A model generated the notes under the pieces. It had not been told where the DNA came from. It saw nothing but the letters and a program-made list of their open reading frames with translations, and did not search any database. A DNA stretch of 21,890 nucleotides from a virus (lineage: Duplodnaviria; Heunggongvirae; Uroviricota; Caudoviricetes): positions 1-21,890 of IMG/VR virus record IMGVR_UViG_2531839180_000003. One strand, 5' to 3'. The translations under genes were made by a program, and so were the position numbers. Below are positions 1,084-21,890 of the stretch, piece by piece. Every line of letters begins with the position of its first letter. The stretch's first letter is position 1.

Positions 1084-1383
1084 ATGAGAACGTATTTATC
1101 TGGCTTGACTGCCAGCGGTTATGCACATCCCAAAATTATCCCCGGCGCTATTTATCGGGATAAGAACGGCAACAGAGTAACAGTAAAATCGATAATGTTT
1201 GACCGTGTGTACTTTATTCGTGATGGCTATTCATTTCATAGCTCGCTGAACGTGGAGATCTTTATTTGCAGATTCCGGCGGGAAATCCCGCCTTCCAGAA
1301 ATAACCATGTGTCACGTGTGGATGTGGATAAAAAACTACAGGAACTGAAAAACATGATTGCCGCGTGGAGAGAGCAGAAATGA
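1084..1383 (+). CDS. hypothetical protein
   Basis: 99-aa ORF with GGGGA upstream of the ATG. Its 3' end overlaps the start of the helicase gene, suggesting translational coupling. Confidence 0.5.
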   Translation: MRTYLSGLTASGYAHPKIIPGAIYRDKNGNRVTVKSIMFDRVYFIRDGYSFHSSLNVEIFICRFRREIPPSRNNHVSRVDVDKKLQELKNMIAAWREQK

Positions 1384-3197
1384 AAAAAGCGCCAAATTTA
1401 AAACACCAACCGCGTGACAAAATGACGGAAGTCATCATTTTTGCGGGTAGTGATGCGTGGGCACATGCGAAGCAGTGGCAGGAACAGGACGGGCGACTGG
1501 CTGGCGATAACGTGCCACCTGTCTGGCTTGGAGAGCAACAACTTGCCGAACTGGACAACCTGCAAATCGTACCAGACGGACGCTATCGCGTGCGTCTCTA
1601 TCAGGCGGGGTTATTGCGTCCGGGACTTGTTAATACCATCGGGCAGAAACTGGCAGCGGCAGGTGTCAGGGATGCTGATTATTACCCTGAAGGAATGCAC
1701 AGCCAGAAACGGGAGAACTGGCGCGAATATCTGGAGCGTGAGCGGGGAGAGCTGGCGGAAAAGAAAAAGGTAGTTGAACTGCCTGTAAAGAAAAAAGAGC
1801 GGGTAAAAGACGATAACGCTTCATCACTGGCGCTTAACCAGATGGGAGCAAGTCAACGCGGCGAAGTTCTCCTGGCACATTATGGTGGTGAACTGGCGAT
1901 TCATGCTGACTCTGACACTGTTCACCATTACAACGGCGTTGTATGGGAGCCGGTTCAGGATAAAGAGTTACAGCGTGCTATGGCGCAGATTTTCATTGAT
2001 GCGGAGATCAGCTATTCACAGAACGCTATTAAATCAGCGGTCGATACCATGAAGTTAAGTTTGCCTGTAATGGGGAATACAGCCCGTAACTTGATTGGAT
2101 TCAGTAACGGGGTATTTGATACCAGAACAGGTAATTTTCGGGAGCATAACAAAAACGACTGGTTGTTAATTGCCAGTGAATTACCGTTCAGCCCACCAGC
2201 AGAGGGGGAAACGCTGGCAACACATGCGCCGAATTTCTGGAAGTGGTTGCACCGTTCGGTGGCTGAGAATGATCGCAAAGCGGATCGTGTACTGGCGGCA
2301 TTATTCATGGTGCTGGCGAACAGATATGACTGGCAGTTATTCATTGAGGTAACTGGTCCTGGTGGAAGCGGTAAAAGCGTAATGGCGGAGATTTGCACCA
2401 TGCTGGCGGGTAAGGCTAATACAGTATCAGCAAGCATGAAGGCGCTGGAAGATGCAAGGGAACGTGCGTTAGTGGTTGGCTTTTCTCTGATTATCATGCC
2501 GGATATGACCCGCTACGCTGGTGATGGGGCAGGGATTAAGGCCATTACAGGCGGTGACAAGGTGGCAATTGACCCGAAACACAAAGCTCCCTACTCAACG
2601 CGTATTCCGGCAGTAGTGCTGGCGGTTAACAATAACGCCATGTCATTCAGTGACCGCAGCGGGGGGATCTCACGTCGTCGGGTGATATTCAATTTTTCGG
2701 AAGTTGTACCGGAGAACGAACGTGATTCGATGCTGGCGGAAAAAATAGAAGGTGAGCTGGCGGTAGTGATTCGCCATCTGCTTACACGGTTTGCTAACCA
2801 GGACGAAGCCAGACGCCTGTTATATGAGCAGCAGAAATCTGAAGAAGCACTGGCGATAAAGCGAGAGGGGGATTCGCTGGTGGACTTCTGCGGCTATCTC
2901 ATGGCGTCGGTAATGTGTGATGGCCTGTTAGTGGGTAATGCTGAAATTGTGCCATTCAGCCCGCGCAGATATCTCTATCATGCCTATCTGGCTTATATGA
3001 GGGCACATGGGTTTGGTAAACCTGTAACACTGACGCGCTTCGGTAAAGATATGCCGGGGGCAATGGCGGAATATGGCAGGGAGTATATGAAACGGAAAAC
3101 GAAGCACGGTTTGCGTTCAAACGTGACACTGACGGAGGAATCAGAAGACTGGATGCCATCATGTGTATCGGTCACTAATGACGATAGCAAAAATTAA
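1380..3197 (+). CDS. P4 alpha-family replication protein (D5/SF3-type helicase domain with Walker A GPGGSGKS)
   Basis: 605 aa from the ATG at 1380 (GGAGAGAG upstream; track ORF begins at 1365). Walker A TGPGGSGKS and Walker B-like LIIMPDM are followed by the motif layout typical of the phage/plasmid primase P4-family C-terminal region. An N-terminal primase active site cannot be confirmed by eye. The TGTTCACC iteron origin lies immediately downstream. Confidence 0.85.
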   Translation: MKKAPNLKHQPRDKMTEVIIFAGSDAWAHAKQWQEQDGRLAGDNVPPVWLGEQQLAELDNLQIVPDGRYRVRLYQAGLLRPGLVNTIGQKLAAAGVRDADYYPEGMHSQKRENWREYLERERGELAEKKKVVELPVKKKERVKDDNASSLALNQMGASQRGEVLLAHYGGELAIHADSDTVHHYNGVVWEPVQDKELQRAMAQIFIDAEISYSQNAIKSAVDTMKLSLPVMGNTARNLIGFSNGVFDTRTGNFREHNKNDWLLIASELPFSPPAEGETLATHAPNFWKWLHRSVAENDRKADRVLAALFMVLANRYDWQLFIEVTGPGGSGKSVMAEICTMLAGKANTVSASMKALEDARERALVVGFSLIIMPDMTRYAGDGAGIKAITGGDKVAIDPKHKAPYSTRIPAVVLAVNNNAMSFSDRSGGISRRRVIFNFSEVVPENERDSMLAEKIEGELAVVIRHLLTRFANQDEARRLLYEQQKSEEALAIKREGDSLVDFCGYLMASVMCDGLLVGNAEIVPFSPRRYLYHAYLAYMRAHGFGKPVTLTRFGKDMPGAMAEYGREYMKRKTKHGLRSNVTLTEESEDWMPSCVSVTNDDSKN

Positions 3198-3518: not shown

Positions 3519-3719
3519 TTGACGGAACACTGGTTAAGGGTGTCGATAAAAATCATCGACCGCAACGCCGGGGAAGGATATGCGAAAGCACATCCCGAAC
3601 TGATTAGCGCATTCATGACAACGGCAGCTGCAAACTTTGCCACGCTGACAGAACGGGAGATTGCCGAAGCGGAACAGGTGACAACCATCAACGTTAAAAC
3701 CGGAGAGCAGACAGCATGA
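3519..3719 (+). CDS. hypothetical small protein (non-ATG start, uncertain)
   Basis: 66-aa ORF starting at TTG. Its stop overlaps the ssb start as ATGA, suggesting coupling. No clear Shine-Dalgarno. Confidence 0.35.
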   Translation: MTEHWLRVSIKIIDRNAGEGYAKAHPELISAFMTTAAANFATLTEREIAEAEQVTTINVKTGEQTA

Positions 3720-4141
3720 CAGCACAGATAGCGGCTTACGGGCGGCTGGTGGCTGACCCGCAGTTAAAGACCACCAGCAAGGGTACACAAATGACGATGG
3801 CTAGTATGGCGGTCCCCCTTCCGTGCAGCCAGGCAGATGACGGAACGGCGATGATGTGGTTATCCGTCCTGGCGTTTGGCAGACAGGCCGACGCACTGGC
3901 AAAACACCACAAAGGCGAACTGGTGAGCGTGGCGGGTAACATGCAGGTAAGCCAGTGGACAGGCCAGAACGGCGAAACGCGGCAGGGCTGGCAGGTTATC
4001 GCAGACAGCGTGATCAGTGCGCGAACAGCGCGTCCGGGCGGCAAAAAAGGCCAGCAGGGGCAGGCCACTGACGCACTGAACAGGGCAAAACAGCAGACGG
4101 GTCAGCACGATGATCCGTACGGGGACAACATACCGTTTTAG
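3716..4141 (+). CDS. ssb: single-stranded DNA-binding protein (SSB)
   Basis: 141 aa. OB-fold-like N-terminus (IAAYGRLVADPQL...), Gly/Gln-rich linker and C-terminal ...DDPYGDNIPF resembling the canonical SSB acidic tip DDDIPF. GGAGAG Shine-Dalgarno upstream. Confidence 0.8.
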   Translation: MTAQIAAYGRLVADPQLKTTSKGTQMTMASMAVPLPCSQADDGTAMMWLSVLAFGRQADALAKHHKGELVSVAGNMQVSQWTGQNGETRQGWQVIADSVISARTARPGGKKGQQGQATDALNRAKQQTGQHDDPYGDNIPF

Positions 4142-5234: not shown

Positions 5235-6404
5235 ATGAAGAAATTAATCGAACTCCGCCAGCAAAAAAACGCCCTGAAAAACCAGATGCGATCCCTGCTG
5301 GAAAAAGCCGACAGTGAAAACCGTAGTCTGAACGCTGAAGAAGGCAAACAGTTTGATGAACTGCGTGCAAAAGCTGATGCCCTCGACACAGAAATTTCCC
5401 GCCTCGAGTCTGTGGCTGATGAAGAACGCAGCAAGCCAGGAACGGGCATCCAGAAATTATCATCTGATGAATTGCGTAACTACATCGTAACCGGAGATGT
5501 GCGATCACTGTCCACCAGCACTGACAGCGGCAGGGATGGCGGATATACCGTAATTCCTGAGCTTGATCGCGAAGTCATGCGCCAGCTACAGGATGACAGT
5601 GTTATGCGCGTGATCGCGACCGTGAAGACCGCAAAATCAAATGAGTTTCAGAAACTGGTTTCCACTGGCGGCGCAACTGTAGGACGAGGCACAGAAGGCA
5701 GCGCACGCAGTGAAACCAACACCCCGAAAATTGAACGCGTAACCATCAAGTTGAATCCGATCTACGCCTACCCGAAAACCACGCAGGAAATCCTGGATTT
5801 TTCAGAGGTGGATATTCTGGGCTGGTTATCCTCCGAAATTGCCGACACGTTCGCCAGCACCGAAGAGGATGATTTTGTTAATGGCGACGGTAACGGCAAG
5901 CCGAAAGGCTTCATGGCTTACACCCGTGCGGCGACCAGTGACAAAACCCGCGCTTTTGGCACCATTGAAAAAATAGTAGCGGCAAGTGGAACCGCCATTA
6001 CAGCGGACGAACTGATCGACATTCTCTACAAGCTGAAAGCGAAATACCGCAAAAATGCCGTCTGGGTGATGAACTCGGGCACGGCAGGGACACTACAGAA
6101 GCTGAAAAATGAGAACGGCGATTATATCTGGCGCGACAGCCTTAAAGAAGGTGCGCCGGATATGTTGCTTGGTCGTCCTGTTTACTGCCTGGAGTCCATG
6201 CCGGACATCGGCGCAGGAAAAGCACCGCTAGCGGTTGGCGATTTCAGTCGTGGTTATTTCATCGTTGATCATGTAACAGGGATTCGCACCCGACCGGACA
6301 ACATTACTGAACCCGGATTCTACAAGGTCCACACGGATAAATATCTGGGCGGTGGTGTGGTGGATTCAAACGCCATCAAAATTCTGGAAATGAAAGCTGG
6401 CTAG
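5235..6404 (+). CDS. HK97-family major capsid protein with N-terminal coiled-coil delta domain
   Basis: 389 aa. Coiled-coil N-terminus (LRQQKNALKNQMRSLLEKA...), then capsid body with the NGDGNGKPKG motif matching HK97 gp5 NGDGTG and a conserved C-terminal region. Confidence 0.9.
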   Translation: MKKLIELRQQKNALKNQMRSLLEKADSENRSLNAEEGKQFDELRAKADALDTEISRLESVADEERSKPGTGIQKLSSDELRNYIVTGDVRSLSTSTDSGRDGGYTVIPELDREVMRQLQDDSVMRVIATVKTAKSNEFQKLVSTGGATVGRGTEGSARSETNTPKIERVTIKLNPIYAYPKTTQEILDFSEVDILGWLSSEIADTFASTEEDDFVNGDGNGKPKGFMAYTRAATSDKTRAFGTIEKIVAASGTAITADELIDILYKLKAKYRKNAVWVMNSGTAGTLQKLKNENGDYIWRDSLKEGAPDMLLGRPVYCLESMPDIGAGKAPLAVGDFSRGYFIVDHVTGIRTRPDNITEPGFYKVHTDKYLGGGVVDSNAIKILEMKAG

Positions 6405-12176: not shown

Positions 12177-12368
12177 TTGAGGCTTTTAATTTATGCATTC
12201 TTAAAAACTTATTTATTATCAATTACTAACAGGAATTAGTAAGAAATACCCGTATTACCTGATCTGGATAATGCCAGCGTAGTCCTGGCGATTATTCAAG
12301 ATAAAATCAAAGACTTATCTGCGATTTTCGAACCGTTTTGTTTAGCCGATCACATCGAGGCTCACAAA

Positions 12369-13727
12369 ATGGGACACCAGACCATACGCCACACCATTAA
12401 ACGTAACGGGGTTTATTACGTTCGTTTCCGCCTGCCTGATAATAAGTTTTTCCGTAAGTCGTTAGAGACTGACAGCCACACCCAGGCGCAGTTGCTCATG
12501 TCTTTTGCTTCTCCTGTAATTCCTCTGGTTCAACGTGGAGCTATCCAACCGGATCACTTCGGTAAGCGTCTTTCTGAGTATGGCAATAGTCTGAAGCAGC
12601 AGAATGAACAATGGCTGGCGCACCAATTTCTGAATGATGCGCGGCGCAATATTCAGCCGATAGTTGTTCATGAAGACCGCGAGGTTGTCTCTCCTTCGGT
12701 AGATGAGGAAGAACAAACTGAAGCACAACCAGAACACGTGTTAACACTGGCTGGCGCGTGGAATATGTATAAAGAGGAGAAAGCCCAAAACTGGACGAAG
12801 GCTATCTCTCAAGCCAATGAGCGCTTTATGGAGGTGATGTTGATTGTCTTGGGTTCATCAACTGATGTAACCACGATTACCAAGCAAGACATTAAACAGG
12901 TAATGGAGGTTGTTGAAAACTTGCCTAAGCGTGTTGTGCAGCCTTATCGGTCAATGACGGTTCAGCAACTGATCGAGTGTGATGATGTTCCGCCAGAAGA
13001 TTTGGTTGGCGCTGAGTCTATCCACAAGCATTTGAAGATTTACAAATCGCTGTTTAAAACCTTCCTGACAGACAATAAAGATATTCTGGAGAAGTCTCCG
13101 ACTGATGGGATCGTCGCCGCACCGTCGAAAACGAGGTTTGGAGCATACAGTGCAGCAGAAATGAGAAAGTTTGTGGGGTGGGCGCTCAGGCAGCCTGACG
13201 GTTGGCAGAAGTGGATCACTCTTTTGTTGGCGTACACGGGAGCCAGAAGAGGCGAGATCGCAAAGCTGGAAAAATCTCATATCAAATATGATGAGGATAG
13301 TCAGCGGCACTATCTCCTTATCGCGGAAGGAGGACAGGGGAAAACTGAGAACGCGACTAGACAGGTTGTAATACATCCCAAACTGATCGAATGGGGATTC
13401 CTTGATTTTGTAAACCGCCAATGGAAAGAGAAAATATTCTCGCCTGTGTCGGGTAAGAACATGCCGAAGATCGGCAAAGTTTTAGCAGATGTGCGTGATC
13501 AGCTTGGTATTCCTTATCTTGATGACTATGGGCAGCGGCGATTGGTGCATAGCTTCCGACATACCATGATTTCAACCTGTTTAGCTGGCTGGGTTGGCAA
13601 CTTAGCGCACTTGCAGCAGGTTGTAGGGCATGAGAAAAGCGGGGCAGGGATCACTAGAAGATACTTACACATTTTTCCTCTGAAAACTGTGTGTTACGTC
13701 ATTGATGGATTGTGTTGGAATGGCTAA
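12369..13727 (+). CDS. int: tyrosine recombinase (phage integrase family)
   Basis: 452 aa with GAGG Shine-Dalgarno. Catalytic signature elements TGARRGE (Arg I), HSFRHT (HxxR box II) and GHEKSGAGITRRYLH (His...Tyr). Confidence 0.85.
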   Translation: MGHQTIRHTIKRNGVYYVRFRLPDNKFFRKSLETDSHTQAQLLMSFASPVIPLVQRGAIQPDHFGKRLSEYGNSLKQQNEQWLAHQFLNDARRNIQPIVVHEDREVVSPSVDEEEQTEAQPEHVLTLAGAWNMYKEEKAQNWTKAISQANERFMEVMLIVLGSSTDVTTITKQDIKQVMEVVENLPKRVVQPYRSMTVQQLIECDDVPPEDLVGAESIHKHLKIYKSLFKTFLTDNKDILEKSPTDGIVAAPSKTRFGAYSAAEMRKFVGWALRQPDGWQKWITLLLAYTGARRGEIAKLEKSHIKYDEDSQRHYLLIAEGGQGKTENATRQVVIHPKLIEWGFLDFVNRQWKEKIFSPVSGKNMPKIGKVLADVRDQLGIPYLDDYGQRRLVHSFRHTMISTCLAGWVGNLAHLQQVVGHEKSGAGITRRYLHIFPLKTVCYVIDGLCWNG

Positions 13728-13837: not shown

Positions 13838-15286
13838 ATGATGTTTATTAAAAAACTGAAGATAGAAAATTTTAAAGGGTATCACGGGGAAGATAATGAG
13901 TTGGAATTCAATATCCCTGATGGAGAAACGGAAGGTAGTGGACTTAATATATTTGTGGGTGAAAACAACGCCGGAAAATCCACTGTATTTGAAATTATAG
14001 ATTTTATAAAGGATGGAACCAAAAAGAACATTGAGGATCTTATATGCAAATCAGACCCGGCTAATATTGCTGAGAAGCTTTCAGCCGAGCTAACCTTCAC
14101 TGGAAACTTATCAGAAGTAATTGCCGCTCATGTACAAGCTAATAAAGTTGCAGCATTCACCTCGCATGTTTTTGAGGACGAGGGTGTTAATTATTTCAGA
14201 GTGAAGAGGTGTAGTGAGGTAGGGGAGAAGAAAATATTATTTTGGAACGGAAATGAATTTGTTAACCCAAGTGGTATAGATGCCCCATTTAAGAAGTTTT
14301 ATGATAATAACTTCATTTGGGCTGATACAAACCCAAGCAATGAAGCAAAGTTTGGCTCTACAACTATATGTGGTTCGCTTCTAAAAGAAATTGCTTTAGG
14401 CCATATTGAAACGGATGAGTATAGAGCGTTTTCTGAGCAATATCATCGCGTATTCAATCATCCTGAATCTGAGTTGAGACAAAAAATATCATTAGTCGAA
14501 GATCAAGTTAGAACAGTTTTTTCATCTCAATTTGGCATGGCAGATATTTCTTTCATTTTTGAGGAGTTGCAGGTAGAGAATTTCTTCAAAACTATTTCCA
14601 TCATGATTGATGATGGGGTGAATGTCCCAATGGGCGAAAAGGGGCATGGAATGCAAAGGGCACTAGCCCTATCATTACTTCAGGTGTATGCTGACATAAC
14701 GTGTAATGCGCATGGCGCTGGGATTAGCAAACCATTTTATCTTTTCATTGATGAACCTGAAATATGTCTTCATCCATCAGGCCAGCAGAAGCTTTTAGAA
14801 GCTTTAATGATTATCTCCAAAAGCAGACAGGTTTTTGTCACAACGCATTCGCCTTTCCTTTTATCTTCCCCTTATCTTAAAAATGTTGGCTTGTTTGTTT
14901 TCAAAAAAGAAAATAATAAGAATGTTGTGGAGAGAGCTGATACTTCTCCATGGTTCCCTTGGTCTCCATCGTGGGGGGAGATTAATTTCAAAGCATACAA
15001 TTTAGCAACCGTTGAATTGCATAATGAATTATATGGTTATTTGCAGGAAAAAAACTCCTGTCCGAGCGAAAAAGCAATGGAACAATGGCTAAATTCAAAT
15101 GGAATTGCATTTGATAAAGTATGGGTTAGAGAATTTAAAGGTGCAGCACAACCGCCAGCGGATACTACATTACAAACATTCATCCGTAATCACATACACC
15201 ACCCAGAGAATGTTACAATGCAATCTAATCGCTATACACAACAAGAATTACTAACTTCAATCCAACAAATGGTTGGTCTTCTATAA
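13838..15286 (+). CDS. ABC-type ATPase of the OLD/AAA_15-like class with unassigned ~140-aa C-terminal domain
   Basis: 482 aa. N-terminus KKLKIENFKGY, Walker A GENNAGKST, signature-like GHGMQRALALSL, Walker B/D-loop LFIDEPEICLHP, H-loop VTTHSP. No Toprim-like acidic motifs seen in the C-terminus, which contains RNHIHH (about residues 450-455). Visibly AT-rich. Own upstream intergenic region and own terminator. Confidence 0.8.
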   Translation: MMFIKKLKIENFKGYHGEDNELEFNIPDGETEGSGLNIFVGENNAGKSTVFEIIDFIKDGTKKNIEDLICKSDPANIAEKLSAELTFTGNLSEVIAAHVQANKVAAFTSHVFEDEGVNYFRVKRCSEVGEKKILFWNGNEFVNPSGIDAPFKKFYDNNFIWADTNPSNEAKFGSTTICGSLLKEIALGHIETDEYRAFSEQYHRVFNHPESELRQKISLVEDQVRTVFSSQFGMADISFIFEELQVENFFKTISIMIDDGVNVPMGEKGHGMQRALALSLLQVYADITCNAHGAGISKPFYLFIDEPEICLHPSGQQKLLEALMIISKSRQVFVTTHSPFLLSSPYLKNVGLFVFKKENNKNVVERADTSPWFPWSPSWGEINFKAYNLATVELHNELYGYLQEKNSCPSEKAMEQWLNSNGIAFDKVWVREFKGAAQPPADTTLQTFIRNHIHHPENVTMQSNRYTQQELLTSIQQMVGLL

Positions 15287-15291
15287 AGAAA

Positions 15292-15320
15292 AAGGCGAGC
15301 CCTTTGGCTCGCCTTTTAAT
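15292..15320. terminator. bidirectional rho-independent terminator between convergent genes
   Basis: Stem AAGGCGAGCC (15292-15301) / GGCTCGCCTT (15306-15315), loop CTTT, then TTTTAAT. The upstream A-run gives a U-tract for the minus strand. Confidence 0.75.
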
Positions 15321-15321
15321 A

Positions 15322-15513
15322 TTAATTTAATAACTTGCGCTTTTTAGATAATAGCACACTTAAAGCATATTCAAACCCGTGTTGCGCCTCTAGACGGCAT
15401 AGGGTGATATTACAGATCCCCAACTCCTTACACAGCGCCTTTCGGTTAATTACCTCCGCCGCGCCAGATACATAGACTTGACCAGCGCCGGGGATATTGA
15501 TTGAAACTTTCAT
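15322..15513 (-). CDS. hypothetical small protein, possibly a truncated head-module gene
   Basis: 63-aa ORF with GAGGT Shine-Dalgarno. Lies directly downstream of the E-like capsid gene and abuts the terminator and the AT-rich int/ATPase segment. Confidence 0.4.
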   Translation of the reverse strand: MKVSINIPGAGQVYVSGAAEVINRKALCKELGICNITLCRLEAQHGFEYALSVLLSKKRKLLN

Positions 15514-15603
15514 GTGTTACCTCAGTGTAAAAGTAAAAATGAATATAACCGGAAGATATAACCCCCAGCCGTACCGGAAGGGCGCGACCGGGGGAAATGT
15601 GCA

Positions 15604-16632
15604 TTACTTCAGCGTGATAGTTGTAAGCCACTGAGGACGAAGCAGAAGAGGCAACAGAGAAAACTCTGACTGCATTTTAATCATCCCGTCATCGTCTACG
15701 CTGGTCCAGGCGTAGCGATCCTTAACGCCCCCCTTGACGGCCAGGCTTTGATTTCTGCTGCATGGCCCTGAAATTTTGCGCAAAAATGAATAATCGGAGT
15801 CGGTCATACGTGGGACAACCAGACCGGAGTTCTCACTCACCTTGTAAGTAGGGTCACCAGCCAGATCGACAAAGGTTACAGGACCCAGCGACATGGTATT
15901 AAAACCACTAAGCGCGTTAGGGATAACCACGCCGGAGATCTGCGCCTGCTGGACGCTGTGCAGAATAAATGCTTGGATCTCTTTGTTGGTGGCAATGACA
16001 TCATAGAGACCAGAATCACACAGGACATACAGACGGTCGCTATAGTTGCGGGCCGCGCCTAGCGCCTGGGAAACCTGGCGACGCAGTTTAGCAAGCTGTT
16101 GGTAAATAGAGGCATCCACGGAAGCATCCAGGGTGAAGGAAGCCGGGGAGGTCCCGAACACCTGATCGAAGGAGATGTCGCCGTCATCGGTATGGGGTGC
16201 GCTCACCTTACGCTCAAAGAGGGCCTCCGCCAGAGAAGTTTCCACAGTTCGGCGATAATCCTTTTCGAACTGTACAGCACGCTTGCTGATAACTTCAGTT
16301 ATTGCCATATCCTGATTAGTTGTTGGACTGATCAGCCCCTGCCAATCATGCGGGCGCACAAAGGCAGTCTCATGTACGACTGGGATCTCGGCATCACGGA
16401 AAACAGCGGTCGCCGCTTTCTGGTGGTTGGTGTCGGTGCCGTAGCGCGACACGGTTTCCAGTTTGGAATCTTCCGCATCAGTAATATCACTCACACGGGC
16501 ATTAGGGACGCTAGAGGAGCCTTTAGCGAACAGGTTCAAATCCTGAAGCAGGTAAGAGCCTTGTTTAGAATCCTTGATAGTTGCTACAAGGTCGAGCCCC
16601 TCATAGGTATTTTTAATATCTTTAACGCTCAT
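15604..16632 (-). CDS. major capsid protein, lambda gpE family
   Basis: 342 aa with GGAGG Shine-Dalgarno. C-terminal ...DRYAWTSVDDDGMIKMQSEFSLLPLL aligns by eye with lambda gpE ...ARYPKNWVTTGDPAREFTMIQSAPLMLL. Length matches gpE (~341 aa). Confidence 0.8.
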   Translation of the reverse strand: MSVKDIKNTYEGLDLVATIKDSKQGSYLLQDLNLFAKGSSSVPNARVSDITDAEDSKLETVSRYGTDTNHQKAATAVFRDAEIPVVHETAFVRPHDWQGLISPTTNQDMAITEVISKRAVQFEKDYRRTVETSLAEALFERKVSAPHTDDGDISFDQVFGTSPASFTLDASVDASIYQQLAKLRRQVSQALGAARNYSDRLYVLCDSGLYDVIATNKEIQAFILHSVQQAQISGVVIPNALSGFNTMSLGPVTFVDLAGDPTYKVSENSGLVVPRMTDSDYSFLRKISGPCSRNQSLAVKGGVKDRYAWTSVDDDGMIKMQSEFSLLPLLLRPQWLTTITLK

Positions 16633-16634
16633 TA

Positions 16635-16994
16635 TTAAGCCTCCATGCTGTTGTTATTGCCAATACGAATAGAACCATCTGCCGTTAGTCGCTTGATTGC
16701 TTCTTTCAGGGAGGCGGCATCTTTGGCGCGGAGGTTGAACGTGTTCATATATGCCAATCTGTCAACCACAACGATTGTCTTATTGTCGCCTGCGGAGACA
16801 TCTACCAGACAGATCAGAGGGGAGCCCTCGACAGCCTGATCGAACAATTCGTAGGTTTCAGCATTGAATACATCGCCACAGAATAGATCCGCTGGGACAG
16901 TGGCCCCTTTGATCTCGGTGCGGGAGAAGAGGTCGGAGGCGCTGTTAACCAGCACATCTGACATTCGTTTAGGGAACGACTCAGAAGTACGCAT
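16635..16994 (-). CDS. putative head decoration protein (lambda gpD-like position)
   Basis: 119 aa from the internal ATG at 16994 with AAGGAAA Shine-Dalgarno; the track N-terminal extension is low complexity. Sits immediately upstream of the gpE-like gene with a 2-nt gap. Similarity to gpD itself is not evident by eye. Confidence 0.45.
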   Translation of the reverse strand: MRTSESFPKRMSDVLVNSASDLFSRTEIKGATVPADLFCGDVFNAETYELFDQAVEGSPLICLVDVSAGDNKTIVVVDRLAYMNTFNLRAKDAASLKEAIKRLTADGSIRIGNNNSMEA

Positions 16995-18300
16995 AAAGGT
17001 TTTCCTTATGGAGGGTTTTAGACGTGGAGAGAGTCCACAGGGTGATCCGGTGCAACGCCGGATATAAGGACCGCCACAGAGGACAATCCGAATGATTGGA
17101 AGATGGGAGGCCGTGGATTGAATAGAAGAGGGCGGCATCATGCCGCCCTTTCTAATCTGGCTCTCTCTCACCCTCGCAGGGTGGGGGGAGGTGTAAACCT
17201 CTTTTTAGTGGTCACTCACCCGCCAGCGTCACGGGAGCAACCGCCAGCCAATGGGCAAATAACCACAAAAAAGAACCCGGAAGGAGACACCGGGATGAAG
17301 GCAATGTAACTTACTGTCTGATCACTTGTTTTCCTGTGTAGCCTCAGAGCCTTACATTATTTGCTTTCATGGTTCAGCAAAGAAGCCACAGAGGAAAACG
17401 GACGCCTGAAATACGCCCGGAAACCATCGAAGAAAATCAATAGTTTATCGTTGCAACTGGGGAACCACCCCGGCCCAACTGTGGACCCCGTGGAGGGTCG
17501 CTACAATCGAGGAGATCGCTTGTATTCTGAAGGGCCGCAGTTAGCGACGCTTTAGAATAGGGTCTGTGGCGCAAGCCCTATGATTAGAGGCGTTTTGAAT
17601 CATAGGAGTGTCATCAACTGGCGGAACTTGAGGAGTGGACCGCACACAAAGCATTCTGGCAAGTGGAGTTGAAAGAACGCTTTGGGTGAGGGCCGGGGCG
17701 GGGGAGAAGTCCGCCCGGCTCACTCAGTACAGACCCACAGGGGCTGGCTAAAGCACATGTTAATGAAAGTTCTGTACAGGTGTGAGGCGGTAAGCTGCAA
17801 AACGGCGATTTCGACATCCTCACCACATCACACACCATGAATACTATGTTATCACAAATGAGAATTATTATCAACAAGTATTAATTGCATTCCTCTTTTA
17901 TTTGTGGTCTTGCGTGGCTTCCCCACATATTGGGAAGAGAGGCAAATCAATTTTTATTAACTGGCGGGTAGGTTGTGGGTTTACATGTTGGCACTTTTGA
18001 CAACAAACCATGTAGCCCAAAAGGCACACAAGAGTATATAACTACATAAAACCTCGCTACGCTCGCCCTCCGGGCTACGGTTTTATTGATCTTATATTAT
18101 AACTTCATTCAATAACTAATTGTTTACACAATTAATTATTTCATTCGTTATAATGTGTTCTTGAAACCTTCCCGCCCTTCCGGGCTTACCAGGTTTTAGG
18201 CCGTTGGCCTGTTTTCCACAGTGTGGAGGCTCGCCTGTGTGGCTCACTCCAGGCAGGGACCCCGGAAATATTTTCCGGCCTGGGGTGTATCAATTTGAAA

Positions 18301-18346
18301 CAGGGGGGTGTGTCAGAATGACACAGGGGTGTGTCAAAATGGCACA
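18301..18346. repeat. tandem pair of dyad-symmetric sites (operator or iteron candidate)
   Basis: CAGGGGGGTGTGTCAGAATGACAC (18301-18324) and CAGGGGTGTGTCAAAATGGCACAC (18325-18346). Each contains GTGTCA-N3-TGACAC-like dyad symmetry. Flanking direct repeat ATAAGACTAA at 18349-18358 and 18374-18383. Confidence 0.55.
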
Positions 18347-18761
18347 CAATAAGACTAATTATAAAACTAACCCATAAGACTAACACCCAGGGCCAGGTCA
18401 AGACCTTTAAGGGAGTGTTGGGAAATCGTAGATTGATTGGTAAGAGACTGATCTCTTTAAGCGTCCTACAGACGCGCCTCTTTGGCAGCGCTCGCACCAG
18501 CGAGCAAGACCCCTTTGGAACACCGCACGATGTAAGGTGACCTCTGGGCGGCGGGGTGGCGGGCCCCCGGCCCGGTACACAGTGCCGCACAGCGTACAGA
18601 ACCACAAGCAGCAGAAGCCCCTAAACGCGCCGCTGTGGCGCTCTCTCATACGTAGAAAAGGAAACACCCTATAAACGCCCTCCGGCGCTCTGAGAGCCTT
18701 ACAGGGGGGCTGTGCATTTAGCACAATAAACAACCGAATGCAAGCGAATGCAAAAATATTC

Positions 18762-18790
18762 TTGCATTTTCATGTAAAATGGTGTAAAAT
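18762..18790 (+). promoter_or_regulatory. sigma70-like promoter with ATGCAA/TTGCAT repeats for the rightward operon
   Basis: -35 TTGCAT at 18762-18767, 17-nt spacer, -10 TAAAAT at 18785-18790. Direct repeats AATGCAA at 18737-18743 and 18747-18753 with inverted copy TTGCATT at 18762-18768. Confidence 0.45.
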
Positions 18791-18864
18791 AGATACCGTG
18801 ATGAGGTGGGTGGTTTGATATAAAAATCCCCATCATAATATAACGCACCTAACCGGAGAATGCA

Positions 18865-19290
18865 ATGAGTATTTACCTTGATGTTGAAAAAATGGTTGAA
18901 CGTATCGATCAGCGTGATTTGAGTCGTTCAACTCTTCAGGGACAACGTAGCCGATTCAAAGCCGCCGGGCGTACCGCTGAAGTGGAAGCAATCGGCAAGG
19001 CTCTGGAGATGACCAAATCCAGCGCCTCCGGCGTCCTCCGCCAGTCTCAGCGCCTTGCCACCAAAATTACAGAGATGGACGCAGAGAAAGCATTAGAGCT
19101 TAAAGCAACCGTTGCGCTGTTCGCTTCCAAGTCTACGGATCTGCAAGCCTCTATTGTGCTGGCTTTCCAATCCTTCTTTGAGGTTAAAGGTGTAACCCTG
19201 GACCACGATGAGGTGATGGCCCTGTTAATGTTGAAAGCATCAGCGGATTTTGAGGACATGACAGGCGAGCTACCAATTATTGTACATTAA
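18865..19290 (+). CDS. hypothetical protein
   Basis: 141-aa ORF with GGAGA Shine-Dalgarno. First gene downstream of the promoter at 18762-18790. Confidence 0.5.
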   Translation: MSIYLDVEKMVERIDQRDLSRSTLQGQRSRFKAAGRTAEVEAIGKALEMTKSSASGVLRQSQRLATKITEMDAEKALELKATVALFASKSTDLQASIVLAFQSFFEVKGVTLDHDEVMALLMLKASADFEDMTGELPIIVH

Positions 19291-19317: not shown

Positions 19318-19578
19318 ATGAATCACGTTTATACAGACTTGTCGGAATCCCGCCTGTTGTCTGGATATGCAAGCCAGATTGTGGAAGCTATCCAAAATGA
19401 TGAGTCTGCCCCGCACCTTTACGACGACATCCGCGAAATGCTCCAGCAGGTTAGCCCCTCTGGCATGATTACCATCGGTAACCCGGGAATTGTCGCCCCG
19501 GCGTCATGGTGGGGTGATTGGTTCGGCCTGGACCTCAGTGCTGAGGACATCGCAGAACTACAGGAGGTTGAATTATGA
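19318..19578 (+). CDS. hypothetical protein
   Basis: 86-aa ORF with a strong GGGAGGG Shine-Dalgarno. Stop overlaps the next start as ATGA. Confidence 0.5.
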   Translation: MNHVYTDLSESRLLSGYASQIVEAIQNDESAPHLYDDIREMLQQVSPSGMITIGNPGIVAPASWWGDWFGLDLSAEDIAELQEVEL

Positions 19579-19880
19579 ACGGTCTAACTATCCCGTTTGA
19601 ACATTTCCAGACCAACAAGATCGCCGGGGTAAATTTCACTGCTGTGATGAAACTGGTTTATTTCTTTCTTGATGCCAATAAGAACCAAGACGGCGTTATT
19701 CATATTTCCCAAACGGATCTTGCCGATATGGTCGGTGTCACTCGCGCAACAATAGGGAAGGTGATTAATAGTCTAAAAGAAATGGGCTTGTTGGTGAAAT
19801 CTGAACAGGTAGCGGGCAATGACATCCTGAATTACAAGACATTGCCTATTCGTCAATATGGGCGTGGTTACAGCAAATAA
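19575..19880 (+). CDS. winged-helix DNA-binding protein (paralog of 20044..20700)
   Basis: 101 aa with GGAGG Shine-Dalgarno. HTH-like segment ISQTDLADMVGVTRATIGKVINSLKEMGLL. Aligns with the N-terminal half of the 20044 product (shared FT..MK..Y, G.I, R.T, EMGL..K.EQV.G..LNY). Confidence 0.55.
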   Translation: MNGLTIPFEHFQTNKIAGVNFTAVMKLVYFFLDANKNQDGVIHISQTDLADMVGVTRATIGKVINSLKEMGLLVKSEQVAGNDILNYKTLPIRQYGRGYSK

Positions 19881-19889
19881 GGGGGTTTT

Positions 19890-20060
19890 ATGAAAATCGA
19901 CTTCCCGAAAGAACAAGCCGATCAGTTATATGCACTGGTAAGGGCGGGCGGTGGCGCTCCCCATACCATCGTTAAACAGGCGTTAGCCGCCTACCTTGAA
20001 AACCACCCTCTTTTAGTCGCTTCCGCAGAAGGAAAACAGCAAGATGACCACAGCAAGTAA
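19890..20060 (+). CDS. small ribbon-helix-helix-like protein (not in ORF track, under 60 aa)
   Basis: 56-aa ORF. ATG at 19890 preceded by AAGGGGG. MKIDFPKEQADQLYALV... has a strand-helix-helix pattern. Its 3' end overlaps the 20044 start. Confidence 0.4.
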   Translation: MKIDFPKEQADQLYALVRAGGGAPHTIVKQALAAYLENHPLLVASAEGKQQDDHSK

Positions 20061-20700
20061 CGGATTTGTAATGTTGGAAAATGGCCTCCTCAACCTGGGG
20101 AAGGTCGCCGGGAAAACTTTCACCGGGAACATGAAAATCACTTACAGCCTGATCCAAGGCTTTGAGAAAAACGGGCAGATCGCCTACTTCTCTCACTCGC
20201 ATCTTCAAACCCAGCTTGGAGCGAGCCGATCCACAGTGATCCGTATGTTGTCGGATATGGTGGAAATGGGCCTGATTAACAAAACCGAGCAGGTGAACGG
20301 CGGGACGCTGAATTACACAGTTAACCCGATCACCCCGGAAATGGTGGGAACCCCTGAAGCCGCCAAACCTGAAGCAACCAAACCAACCGCAGCACCCCAA
20401 CCCGTGGAGACCGTAGAGAATGCAGGAAGTAACCAGCCTGGAATTGTTAAGTGTGGATCTGACAGCGTACATAGAAGCCGCCCGGCGTCGCCTGGAGCTT
20501 CTCCTGTGGACCACAGCGGGGGCGCTGTTCGTCCCGCTCCTGTCCCTGTACCAGTAGAGCAGGGGGCCGCAAACGATGATTTACGCAACCTTGTTATTAA
20601 TTTTGTGGCTGGCTCTAATGTGTTGATGGTCAACGGCTTGCCTGTTGAATATTTGGAGCCAGAAGAAAGCGCCATTGATCAGTTTGGAGATGCCTTCTAA
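20044..20700 (+). CDS. winged-helix DNA-binding protein with Pro/Ala-rich linker and C-terminal domain
   Basis: 218 aa with GGAAA Shine-Dalgarno. N-terminal domain paralogous to 19575..19880. Low-complexity linker PEAAKPEATKPTAAPQP...PAPVPVPV. Confidence 0.55.
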   Translation: MTTASNGFVMLENGLLNLGKVAGKTFTGNMKITYSLIQGFEKNGQIAYFSHSHLQTQLGASRSTVIRMLSDMVEMGLINKTEQVNGGTLNYTVNPITPEMVGTPEAAKPEATKPTAAPQPVETVENAGSNQPGIVKCGSDSVHRSRPASPGASPVDHSGGAVRPAPVPVPVEQGAANDDLRNLVINFVAGSNVLMVNGLPVEYLEPEESAIDQFGDAF

Positions 20701-21346: not shown

Positions 21347-21529
21347 ATGTCCAACCCAACGGAATGGGACCTAAAGGATTACTTAGGTTCCAAACTGGTT
21401 AAGCGTCAGACAAGACTCTCTAACTTTCTCGCCTCCCTCCTCTATATCCCCTTTAAGCCCGCCTCCCTCTTCCTGTGGGGTGTGGTACTCACTTTACTTA
21501 TAAGGACTCTCTCAAATGCACCCCTTTGA
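21347..21529 (+). CDS. hypothetical small protein with hydrophobic C-terminal segment
   Basis: 60-aa ORF starting 2 nt after the previous stop. Weak Shine-Dalgarno. C-terminal LFLWGVVLTLLI stretch. Confidence 0.3.
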   Translation: MSNPTEWDLKDYLGSKLVKRQTRLSNFLASLLYIPFKPASLFLWGVVLTLLIRTLSNAPL

Positions 21530-21890
21530 ACTACTGAAACGCCAACTTGACGAAATGGCGAAATCCCGCCAGGTAGAGCAGGCCCAAGAGGAAGCCGCCG
21601 CCCGTGAACTCCGCAAGGCACAGGCCGATCTGTCACTGGATGAGGCTATCGCTCTGTACGTTACACAGTTGGAAGCCTCCACAGAGGCCGCAGACAGCGT
21701 CCAGAGGGGCCGCGCCATTAAGAGCCGGGGAATTGCTCTGTGTCACAAGGATCAGGGCTACAGCGCCAACGGTCGCCCGGTCTCTCTCCTGATCAAATCC
21801 GCAGACCTGCCAGCAGGTCACCGCCGGGTAATCATCAACAAGGCAGCAGGGCGCACCCTGAAGGCTATCAATCTAGAAGGGGCTGAATAA
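21516..21890 (+). CDS. hypothetical protein
   Basis: 124-aa ORF with AAGGA upstream. Stop codon is the last three bases of the window. Confidence 0.45.
   Translation: MHPFELLKRQLDEMAKSRQVEQAQEEAAARELRKAQADLSLDEAIALYVTQLEASTEAADSVQRGRAIKSRGIALCHKDQGYSANGRPVSLLIKSADLPAGHRRVIINKAAGRTLKAINLEGAE

Follow-up and report, generated by a model that had tools for sequence, protein, structure and literature searches.

The gene-free interval and its features

The stretch of DNA analysed here, referred to as the window, comprises positions 1 to 21,890 of the IMG/VR virus record IMGVR_UViG_2531839180_000003. Within it, a gene-free interval of 1870 nt (16995-18864), hereafter the gap, separates a capsid operon on the minus strand, to the left, from a divergent operon on the plus strand, to the right, whose gap-adjacent gene encodes a 141-amino-acid (aa) protein. 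The gap starts at 16995 and not at 17172, because the small minus-strand gene on its left begins at the ATG at 16994. The 178-aa GTG open reading frame (ORF) that covers 16635-17171 on the minus strand is an over-extension of this 119-aa gene, whose homologues are annotated or called at 119-127 aa with a start that matches the ATG at 16994.

In every related locus retrieved, the minus-strand small gene and the plus-strand 141-aa gene are separated by 1816-2132 nt without a consistently called gene. About 30 related Enterobacterales loci, from E. coli, Cronobacter, Enterobacter, Citrobacter, Pantoea, Pectobacterium, Pluralibacter and Salmonella, keep both the position of the gap and its length, which is 1.8-2.05 kb. 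Conservation was measured on an alignment of 15 loci, in which the mean column identity of the gap (0.60-0.87) lies in the same range as that of the two flanking genes. The mode of divergence is that of non-coding DNA: pairwise indels amount to 26 per kb in the gap versus 1.2-4.5 per kb in the flanking coding sequence, 20% of them are multiples of 3 versus 73-92%, and diversity by codon phase is flat (~0.30/0.31/0.30), whereas the flanking genes give 0.18/0.12/0.39 and 0.45/0.17/0.22. Moreover, consensus folding of the gap alignment beats column shuffles by 4.5-12.9 standard deviations (sd). The homologous gap of the E. coli relatives is free of annotated genes in RefSeq, and the gene callers found nothing consistent across more than 20 related loci. 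A Pfam scan of the eight longest gap ORFs gave no match and a PHROG scan one marginal match (E 0.009); clustering of the gap ORFs produced only overlapping fragments, on both strands, with inconsistent frames and boundaries. A search for tRNA and tmRNA genes found none, and a nucleotide search of plasmids gave no match. Because the gap is conserved like its flanking genes, lacks codon periodicity, carries frame-breaking indels and matches no protein family, we conclude from these sequence comparisons that it is almost certainly functional non-coding DNA under selection.

The opposite explanation, namely that the gap consists of decayed coding sequence, the frameshifted remnants of phage genes, can appeal to ORFs of up to 139 aa, to the one ORF that each of two gene callers reported in single relatives, to the marginal PHROG match and to a weak gradient in diversity at 18491-18677. 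It is contradicted by a conservation equal to that of the flanking genes without 3-periodicity, by the 80% of indels that are not multiples of 3, by ORF boundaries and frames that vary among relatives, by the lack of Pfam matches and of annotated genes in the RefSeq relatives, and by the strong RNA covariation described below. With no translated similarity found either, we rejected decay, to which we attach a negligible probability. The segment 18491-18677 is the sole sub-window of the gap with a slight phase gradient (0.21/0.16/0.13); indels of 2, 8 and 12 nt among relatives disrupt any frame there, and the gradient was treated as chance.

The features recognized in the gap and next to it are as follows.

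15604-16994, minus strand: capsid operon (119-aa gene at 16635-16994 and capsid-protein homologue at 15604-16632)
16995-18864, no strand: whole gene-free control region, at the same place in every related locus
16995-17186, strand tests in conflict: region upstream of the capsid-operon start codon, with hairpins at 17024-17038, 17045-17063 and 17130-17148
17187-17212, plus strand: intrinsic terminator, GGAGGT-gtaa-ACCTC followed by TTTTT, facing terminator T2
17256-17840, minus strand: structured RNA of ~580 nt, predicted from covariation and consensus fold
17256-17294, minus strand: terminator T2, CCCGG-loop-CCGGG (17294..17267) followed by UUCUUUUUUGUGG, predicted 3′ end of the RNA
17399-17419 (element 17328-17419), minus strand: terminator-like hairpin T1, with six fully compensated stem versions, flagged by the terminator scan
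17557-17566 with 17572-17581, minus strand: conserved helix 3, 99.4% paired, with 3 covarying pairs
17688-17721, minus strand: GC-rich hairpin with a variable tip (-21.3 kcal/mol, z -3.4)
17846-17874, minus strand: sigma-70-type promoter of the RNA, TTGATA-17-TAACAT, from promoter scan and alignment conservation
17900-18005, no strand: hypervariable, indel-rich spacer between two promoter zones (gap fraction 0.3-0.44, unrelated inserts)
18006-18154, plus strand: cassette in common with lytic Certrevirus myophages, comprising a conserved box, a two-tier hairpin (18048-18084) and AT-rich DNA with GATCTTATA
18125-18154, plus strand: predicted promoter TACACA-18-TATAAT (10/12 positions in the promoter scan, partly conserved), pointing at the repeats, ~115 nt downstream of the cassette hairpin
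18161-18258, plus strand: most conserved block of the gap (column identity 0.85), with hairpin H1, hairpin H2 and U-run (18199-18215), palindrome CCACAGTGTGG (18216-18226) and hairpin H3
18262-18278, no strand: palindrome CCGGAAATATTTTCCGG, a single copy here and a repeated iteron type in other lineages
18282-18304, 18305-18327 and 18326-18348, no strand: three tandem 23-bp dyads, GGGGTGTRTCA-N4-GAnACA, spaced by 23 and 21 bp
18349-18383, no strand: AT-rich element with three ATAA(G/A)ACTAA 10-mers spaced by 12-13 bp, candidate DNA-unwinding element
18385-18725, no strand: conserved structured block (consensus fold z -4.9 and -5.6 on the two strands)
18737-18797, plus strand: main rightward promoter, with -35 TTGCAT (18762-18767), 17-nt spacer and -10 TAAAAT (18785-18790); it holds GAATGCAA twice and an inverted TTGCAT
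18798-18864, plus strand: 5′ untranslated region (UTR), with hairpin GTGATGAGG (18798-18806) with CCCCATCAT (18828-18836) and a GGAG ribosome-binding site
20044-20700, plus strand: winged-helix protein of 218 aa, candidate initiator, 1.7 kb from the dyads

The original prediction, made from the letters of the window, had described a gene-poor stretch; this is borne out by the gene calls, RefSeq and Pfam, and the stretch is larger than had been claimed. Its setting in dense phage DNA does not hold, the DNA being a small satellite-like island. A nucleotide and translated search for pseudogene remnants had been proposed as a check; it returned no remnants of known phage genes, and conserved non-coding elements are present. 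All the features it listed exist, some of them within 0-2 nt of where they had been placed: the hairpin given as 17132-17150 was found at 17130-17148, and the GC hairpin given as 17691-17720 at 17688-17721. The phage-derived segment at 18006-18154 and the weak conservation of the 9-bp hairpin discussed below were absent from it. Among its four alternatives, a non-coding RNA, a replication origin and operators would each fit a different part of the gap (the minus-strand RNA, the dyads with ATAAGACTAA, and the dyads over the -35 box of the main rightward promoter, respectively), and decayed coding sequence drops out.

A predicted minus-strand RNA upstream of the capsid operon

The candidate RNA was studied on an alignment of the 590 nt downstream of its promoter, read on the minus strand, from 19 non-redundant loci. 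RNAalifold gave a consensus of 87 pairs, 33 of them with compensatory double changes. Shuffled alignments gave 14.1 ± 2.3 covarying pairs and none of 500 reached 33; likewise, 95.8% of the paired cells were filled by pairs, compared to 89.4 ± 0.4% in shuffles. Sliding the 3′ partners by 1-3 columns left only 4-13 covarying pairs. The aligned block beats column shuffles by 12.9 sd, and the window sequence of the RNA alone folds at -209.8 kcal/mol (z -5.5). The strand can be assigned from the G.U pairs. Many pairs of the RNA are invariant U.G or G.U, or alternate G.U with A.U or G.C, and would become A.C mismatches on the plus strand. When the same helices are placed on the opposite strand canonical pairing falls from 92% to 82%, and G.U counting is decisive for the minus strand over 17255-17845. 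The promoter recurs in most relatives, in the form TTGCAA-17-TAAACT. The covariation thus leaves us in little doubt that a structured minus-strand RNA exists. Searching the gap against Rfam at the gathering threshold gave nothing and no family matches the RNA; the covariance-model scan suggested in the original prediction produced no known family, and covariation supports the ~580-nt RNA instead.

The T2 hairpin and its U-tract are found in 19/19 sequences, with a compensatory stem in the related loci L011 and L021. The stems of T1 and T2 swap among relatives and their U-tracts are invariant. The U-tract of T1 is at the same time the 5′ arm of an 18-bp helix (17382-17399 with 17328-17345); T1 together with this helix folds at -28.6 kcal/mol (z -3.6), and helix 10 is 97.8% paired. 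About 50 nt downstream of T2 lies sequence complementary to its U-tract. A short helix joining the 5′ and 3′ ends of the RNA also covaries (AU in 15 and GC in 3 sequences; GU in 10 and AU in 9). Within the RNA, the 9-bp stem that had been predicted at 17577-17606 is present as CCTATGATT/AATCATAGG (17577-17585 with 17598-17606). Helix 3 overlaps and competes with it and is the better conserved of the two, the 9-bp hairpin being lost by deletion of its 5′ arm in 6/19 relatives. The GC-rich hairpin at 17688-17721 keeps the base of its stem, and its apex is replaced in L002, L041, L043, L017 and L019.

A distance of ~260 nt separates the 3′ end of the RNA from the capsid operon, which lies downstream on the same strand and is its neighbour in every locus. 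A promoter followed by intrinsic terminators is found upstream of the capsid operon and co-oriented with it, as in a leader. Neither the promoter scan of 16600-19000 nor reading of the alignment revealed a sigma-70-like promoter between T2 and the capsid start codon. From this arrangement we tentatively propose, at a little under even odds, that the ~580-nt RNA is a termination-controlled leader of the capsid operon. Such a leader would hold the operon off by premature termination at T1 and T2, and readthrough would need an antitermination signal, presumably from helper infection.

A serious rival, which we consider rather unlikely, is that the RNA stands alone: it would end at T2 and act in trans or antisense, as an immunity RNA of the P4 CI type or as a protein sponge, and the capsid operon would have its own helper-activated promoter. 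The presence of T2 with its invariant U-tract in all 19 sequences speaks for such a product, and the covarying helix that closes the ends suggests a discrete RNA species. The structure is, besides, far more elaborate than termination alone needs, and the plus-strand terminator at 17187-17212, which faces T2, insulates both sides. However, no sigma-70 promoter was found between T2 and the start codon of the capsid operon, the operon lies next to the RNA on the same strand in every locus, and for the RNA itself neither target complementarity nor an Rfam family match was identified.

Improbable, in our view, is a third explanation, according to which the conserved hairpins act as DNA, in the form of a packaging (pac/cos) site, single-strand initiation signals or recombination sites. 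A satellite needs a packaging signal compatible with its helper, and none was located; G.T pairs are tolerated in hairpins of single-stranded DNA too; and the phage-like cassette and the block at 18161-18258 are conserved in sequence, with invariant internal loops. Yet a promoter and terminators on one strand frame the 580-nt structured region, its 87 nested pairs are unneeded for a packaging site, and the remainder of the gap is without phage similarity even in distant mode. The leader thus stays the reading that we prefer for the RNA.

In most relatives the spacer of the minus-strand promoter holds a perfect 13-bp palindrome, AATGATWATCATT (6758-6770 in L001, and 21 other loci), which we take to be the core of the E. 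coli Fur-box consensus GATAATGATAATCATTATC. The counterpart in the window, in the spacer at 17852-17868, has diverged, and no match within 3 mismatches is present in the window. The palindrome could be an iron-responsive or an element-specific operator.

The region between the RNA and the capsid operon is structured as well. Stems at 16995-17186 are kept by compensatory swaps (GTGGA/TCCAC to GCGGC/GCCGC, and GGGCGGC/GCCGCCC to GAGGTTCA/TGAACCTC), and the GC hairpin GGGCGGCATCATGCCGCCC at 17130-17148 folds at -21.5 kcal/mol (z -5.75). The stem of the plus-strand terminator at 17187-17212 (-11.9 kcal/mol, z -2.5) has been wholly replaced in at least four lineages with the T-run kept. No credible sigma-70 promoter for a plus-strand RNA was found across 16995-17207. 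On the plus strand, 17023-17156 gives a sub-threshold match to the Rfam family PrrB/RsmZ (RF00166; 22.1 bits with E 0.019, the gathering threshold being 44; the opposite strand scores 16.3 bits). The match sits in a GGA-rich stretch antisense to the 5′ UTR of the capsid operon and is probably a composition effect.

Dyad repeats, phage-like cassette and rightward promoter

No further copy of the dyad motif exists in the window; chance alone would give 0.26 matches. Across the family, the dyad segment is the one place where the sequence is replaced wholesale and the architecture kept. Relatives carry 1-5 tandem dyads, each with a preceding G-run, and directly after them, in every iteron class, comes the AT-rich element CAATAA(G/T)ACTAAT...ATAA(G/C)ACTAAC. 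In the window its 10-mers are ATAAGACTAA, at 18349-18358 and 18374-18383, and a 90%-identical third copy, ATAAAACTAA, at 18361-18370. The original prediction had reported both copies of the former as a direct repeat and missed the third; its tandem pair of dyads at 18301-18346 is real and represents copies 2 and 3 of the three 23-nt units.

In 16 loci, the class of the dyads switches together with residues ~45-100, the DNA-binding domain, of a winged-helix protein of ~220 aa (218 aa in the window):

Dyads GGGGTCAnATTGACCCC (L001, L008, L010, L017, L022, L043): DNA-binding residues ...RATLERYLGASRSTVKRLVNEM...VERKQGETIEW
Dyads GCGGAAATATTTTCCG (L002, L007, L020): DNA-binding residues ...RRLGxTDRxVRNLLRDM...QIGGKTCHY
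Dyads TAGGCAAAATCTGCCTA (L011, L012, L014): unrelated DNA-binding domain (...FGQAELADFLMCSLRTARNVIGALKKAG...)
Own dyad variants (window, L021, L018, L019): own DNA-binding-domain variants

Identity in this N-terminal domain is 86% within a class versus 38% between classes, and the C-terminal 100 residues assort independently of it. The window and L001 are 97% identical in the C-terminal part and differ in DNA-binding domain and iterons; L001 and L017 are alike in DNA-binding domain and iterons and share 34% C-terminal identity. Co-switching of this kind is the behaviour of an initiator-origin or a repressor-operator pair, and on its strength we hold it very probable that the dyads are bound by the 218-aa protein. 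Binding by winged-helix and ribbon-helix-helix proteins had been proposed; the class co-switching points to the former, and none of the latter is implicated.

The locus has the components of an iteron origin, with three repeats phased at ~2 helical turns, an adjoining AT-rich element, and repeats matched to the DNA-binding domain of a protein encoded in cis. The 218-aa protein matches PHROG families of O-like/replication-initiation proteins and helicase loaders (E 8e-7 to 1e-5). We favour an origin because the AT-rich repeats are always adjacent to the dyads, the protein consists of two modules, the PHROG matches are O-like and no promoter lies over the sites. The dyads and the AT-rich element would therefore probably form an origin of replication. 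The winged-helix N-terminal domain would bind the iterons and the separately evolving C-terminal domain would recruit the replisome of the host or of the helper.

The same sites can be seen as operators, with the 218-aa protein acting as an immunity or transcription regulator that binds three sites cooperatively, like lambda CI at OR1-3, and with the origin elsewhere or no autonomous replication at all. Three dyad sites of ~17-19 bp at 21-23 bp spacing fit lambda-type operator geometry, swaps of domain and site specificity are equally typical of immunity regions, Pfam and NCBIfam detect only regulator-like winged-helix similarity, and a 101-aa paralogue of the DNA-binding domain alone is encoded at 19575-19880. 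We nevertheless think operators unlikely. No conserved promoter covers the repeats, the nearest predicted -10 boxes being ~130 bp upstream and 440 bp downstream; the conserved array of three AT-rich 10-mers always follows them; initiators of the O type and helicase loaders head the PHROG matches; the protein, like initiators, carries a second domain, at its C-terminus, that assorts independently; and the number of sites ranges from 1 to 5 between lineages. An origin accordingly remains our preferred interpretation of the dyads.

All the winged-helix homologues have an acidic C-terminal tail whose last residues are D-(P/A)-F (...IDQFGDAF, ...NIDFGDPF, ...DLDPAF). This tail presumably resembles the C-terminal tip of the single-stranded DNA-binding protein SSB (DDDIPF), which recruits replication proteins, and may be a recruitment motif. 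The 101-aa protein (19575-19880) is 30-40% identical to the N-terminal domain of the 218-aa protein and occurs in only some lineages. It was considered as a partner of the CCGGAAATATTTTCCGG dyad or of the ATGCAA operator of the main rightward promoter; neither correlates with it.

Between the RNA promoter and the dyads lies the cassette found also in phages. Its 91-nt core (18006-18096) shares 98.9% identity with intergenic, unannotated DNA of Cronobacter phage CR9 and 85-92% identity with other Certrevirus phages of Cronobacter, Pectobacterium, Enterobacter, Klebsiella and Pantoea. A more sensitive search extended the similarity to 18154 (149 nt, 77-86% identity, 24 Certrevirus records), all matches being to unannotated intergenic DNA; in these phages the cassette sits between divergent gene blocks. 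The lytic-phage fragment described below apart, this non-coding similarity is limited to Certrevirus. The rest of the gap (queries 16995-17900 and 18155-18864) found no match in the phage collection even in distant mode. The cassette hairpin reads AAAACC-TCGCTACGCTC-GCCC-TCC-GGGC-[TAC]-GGTTTT. Its covariation was read from the raw sequences, since column-based counting lost register through indels: among phages and islands the outer stem is AAAACC/GGTTTT, AAGACC/GGTCTT or AACACC/GGTGTT (A-T, G-C and C-G at one position), and the 11-nt bulge TCGCTACGCTC is nearly invariant. Three islands have a G.T pair in the hairpin that is compatible with the plus strand only. In the adjoining block, H1 (18164-18196) repeats the design of the cassette hairpin, with the same outer and inner stems and different conserved bulges; its inner-stem GC becomes CG in 7/18 sequences and its outer 8 bp are nearly invariant. 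G.U counting is ambiguous over 18155-18262.

We infer from these similarities that the cassette represents a signal of phages, for transcription or for replication, that was gained by recombination and would tie the island to helpers of the Certrevirus type. The PF26210 protein of the island (window 21516-21890; 10203-10577 in L001) is 50-58% identical, over its C-terminal 60-75 residues, to its closest phage relatives, which are encoded by small Vequintavirinae genes adjoining the portal gene, and this kinship agrees with the Certrevirus link. We put the chance that Certrevirus-type phages are the helpers at even. The cassette and the neighbouring promoter would then couple origin firing or rightward transcription to Certrevirus-type infection. 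The record 'UNVERIFIED Enterobacter phage SS-2025' (PV358085.1) was considered as a packaged copy of the element and rejected; it is a lytic-phage fragment (HNH endonuclease, ATPase, phosphohydrolase) that has only the cassette in common with the island.

To the right of the AT-rich element, the structured block at 18385-18725 favours a minus-strand RNA in its right part (18594-18724), where a 16-bp helix has 8 compensatory pairs and a 10-bp helix has 5. In most relatives the alignment also reveals a leftward promoter, TTGACA-17-TATTGT, back-to-back with the main rightward promoter. The latter corresponds to the promoter with ATGCAA repeats of the original prediction and was recovered as TTGCAT-17-TAAAAT, with the repeats at 18738-18743 and 18748-18753 and the inverted TTGCAT at 18762-18767, which is the -35 box itself. 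The context of the -10 box, GTGTAAAATA, is invariant. The dyads over the -35 box vary by lineage with their symmetry kept: ATGCAA...TTGCAT here, TCGCAA...TTGCGA in most loci and ATCAACAAATTTGTTGAT in others. This pattern fits operators for an island-encoded repressor, which would act on the main promoter through them. No cognate repressor was identified among the candidates compared across lineages.

The island, its likely biology and known systems

The window is not one dense phage genome and consists of two units in tandem. Positions 1 to ~12240 form a unit that resembles a capsid-forming phage-inducible chromosomal island (PICI). It encodes a D5-type primase-helicase (1365-3197), SSB (3716-4141) and an HK97-type capsid protein (5235-6404), together with a prohead protease, a portal protein, an HNH nuclease, TerS and TerL. 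This unit shares ~76% identity with a 16.5-kb 'induced prophage' record and with part of a Klebsiella phage. At its junction with the second element, the window carries an attachment repeat in a 41-nt copy (12242-12282), which suggests tandem insertion of both elements at one attachment (att) site. In E. coli SCU-316 (L003), 71-nt repeats at 2730-2800 and 16300-16370 flank an island of ~13.6 kb; the repeat is the 3′ part of the thiM thiamine pyrophosphate (TPP) riboswitch. At the right end of the SCU-316 island, from a short tyrosine recombinase to the right attachment repeat (14960-16294), lies a second unannotated stretch of ~1.3 kb.

The second island of the window begins at 12369. Its gene order is integrase, AAA_15 ATPase, capsid homologue and 119-aa gene (both on the minus strand), the gap, and the plus-strand genes for the 141-aa protein, small proteins, two winged-helix proteins, a 188-aa helix-turn-helix (HTH) protein and the PF26210 'Phage_phiTE_211' protein. 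Islands of relatives also carry a TMP_3 (tape-measure-like) protein of ~710 aa and a short tyrosine recombinase. Integrase, att repeats, a single capsid homologue and the PF26210 and TMP_3 proteins, with no portal or terminase gene, are the make-up of a phage satellite. Relatives of the capsid homologue carry PF03864 (Phage_cap_E) and are named 'major capsid protein' in RefSeq; no relatives were found in viral contigs, nor by tblastn against the phage collection. The 141-aa protein has 91 homologue clusters, many on contigs of ~13-14 kb, in E. coli, Cronobacter, Enterobacter, Citrobacter, Pantoea, Pectobacterium, Pluralibacter, Klebsiella aerogenes and Salmonella. One variant of the gap-adjacent gene is indexed in 713 blocks of the contig collection. 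The scan of genome_contigs for relatives, a collection with one genome per species, yielded one locus only, and the metagenome pattern scan mostly duplicates. Between integrase and capsid homologue there is a variable cargo slot (window 13838-15286 and equivalents), occupied here by an AAA_15/PtuA-like ATPase with no obvious nuclease partner and in relatives by an Abi_C protein, a DUF4145 protein or other genes. The slot resembles the defence hotspot of P4-like satellites.

Taking RNA, dyads, cassette and promoters together, we propose, with a probability of about 0.6, that the gap is the cis-acting hub of this ~13.6-kb integrative, phage-satellite-like element. Several findings weigh against this composite picture. 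Strand tests and G.U counting conflict for 16995-17215, and the strand of any RNA is ambiguous by G.U counting in 18385-18600. Taken singly, T1 and T2 are weak (-12 and -8 kcal/mol, z -1.6). Rfam at the gathering threshold brought up no family of the nut, put or qut kind in the gap, and at E up to 5 it gave only chance-level matches; family scans of ten island proteins turned up no Q- or N-like protein; a helper-encoded factor is possible. The PHROG initiator matches of the 218-aa protein (E ~1e-6) span its generic winged-helix domain, Pfam and NCBIfam give it only generic winged-helix/HTH matches below their cut-offs, and a sequence search of the PDB gave no relative. Three dyads ~23 bp apart equally describe lambda-type operators. 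Finally, four lineages carry in place of the cassette an unrelated AT-rich block, as in loci of the L002 type, that matches no phage, and a 75%-identical copy of the cassette lies directly after a gene end in the unrelated lytic phage fragment PV358085.1 (L024 10018-10168), so that it could be a terminator-promoter unit. A further-reaching version is speculative, and we think it doubtful as a whole: the islands would form an undescribed satellite family of lytic Certrevirus/Vequintavirinae myophages, in which a pirated helper cassette, its two-tier hairpin with the invariant 11-nt bulge duplicated in modified form as H1, lets the origin and rightward transcription fire only in the presence of the machinery of the helper, and a new class of ~580-nt RNA gates the capsid gene by regulated termination or in trans.

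By analogy, the hub may combine the workings of an origin of the lambda/PLE type, of divergent control as in P4 and of a late leader governed by terminators. The lambda origin has tandem dyad repeats of ~19-23 bp followed by an AT-rich region, and its initiator O has an N-terminal DNA-binding and a C-terminal recruiting domain. The island resembles it in its tandem dyad repeats ~2 helical turns apart, its neighbouring AT-rich element and a modular candidate initiator whose winged-helix N-terminal domain sets specificity. However, in the island 1.7 kb separate the repeats from the initiator gene downstream, and in lambda the repeats are inside that gene; the island encodes no P-like helicase loader, sequence identity is undetectable and the homology to O is weak.

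In P4, a long untranslated leader with termination as its control point (CI RNA) precedes the replication operon. The island has an analogous order of integrase, defence cargo, leftward capsid-modifying operon, divergent control region and rightward regulatory/replication operon, and would likewise use a long untranslated leader controlled by termination. The terminated leader stands before the replication operon in P4 but before the capsid operon in the island, and the island RNA is several times larger. Queries with the gap against the phage collection in distant mode found no sequence similarity to the P4 leader or CI RNA; Rfam gave no match to them, and neither a processed RNA of the CI kind nor seqA/seqC complementarity was shown. 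A promoter that looks constitutive, with terminators behind it and structural genes further downstream, also recalls the antitermination-dependent expression of the lambdoid PR′/6S RNA/tR′/Q system and of HK022 put, a mechanism that would apply to the island by analogy. In contrast to these systems, no Q, N or put-like element was identified in the island, and its leader of ~580-840 nt has a conserved complex structure, compared with 194 nt in lambda. Membership among the CsrB/RsmZ sponge RNAs falls below the Rfam gathering threshold.

RepA of PLE, a Vibrio cholerae satellite, has no helicase or primase and binds iterons that lie in a long non-coding stretch; replication of PLE is restricted to helper infection (PMC7145576). 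The island is similarly satellite-like, with a large non-coding region that would bear the origin and a candidate initiator without helicase or primase that has a DNA-binding N-terminal and a lineage-specific C-terminal domain. The two differ in having no sequence relationship and in their hosts and helpers, and helper dependence, shown for PLE, is a candidate property here. For the neighbour gene of the gap, a parallel is Ccm of SaPIbov5, reported as a satellite-borne homologue of a major capsid protein (PMC8569155). Both elements have a capsid-protein homologue instead of a full head module; unlike Ccm, the island homologue is without a phage relative detectable by tblastn. Searches of the literature for satellites of Certrevirus, Vequintavirinae or rV5-like phages, or for such leaders, found no description, with incomplete coverage that makes this absence of evidence only. 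What appears distinctive in the hub is its size, the candidate new ~580-nt structured RNA and the segment pirated from a helper.

To our knowledge, the satellites described for strictly lytic phages come mainly from Vibrio (PLE, PICMI), and by what means such elements detect a helper and time their response is an open question. The hub would give the enterobacteria a defined satellite cis-regulatory system. Its swappable specificity classes, of iteron together with DNA-binding domain, would open the replication and the incompatibility of satellites to direct tests, and the 91-nt identity shared with phage CR9 gives a concrete lead to the helper and to the signal. The 580-nt RNA is a candidate new family, with covariation enough to be modelled, placed where capsid-size piracy is controlled. 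Many clinical genomes of Enterobacter, E. coli and Cronobacter carry these ~1.9 kb of DNA, which are conserved and unannotated.

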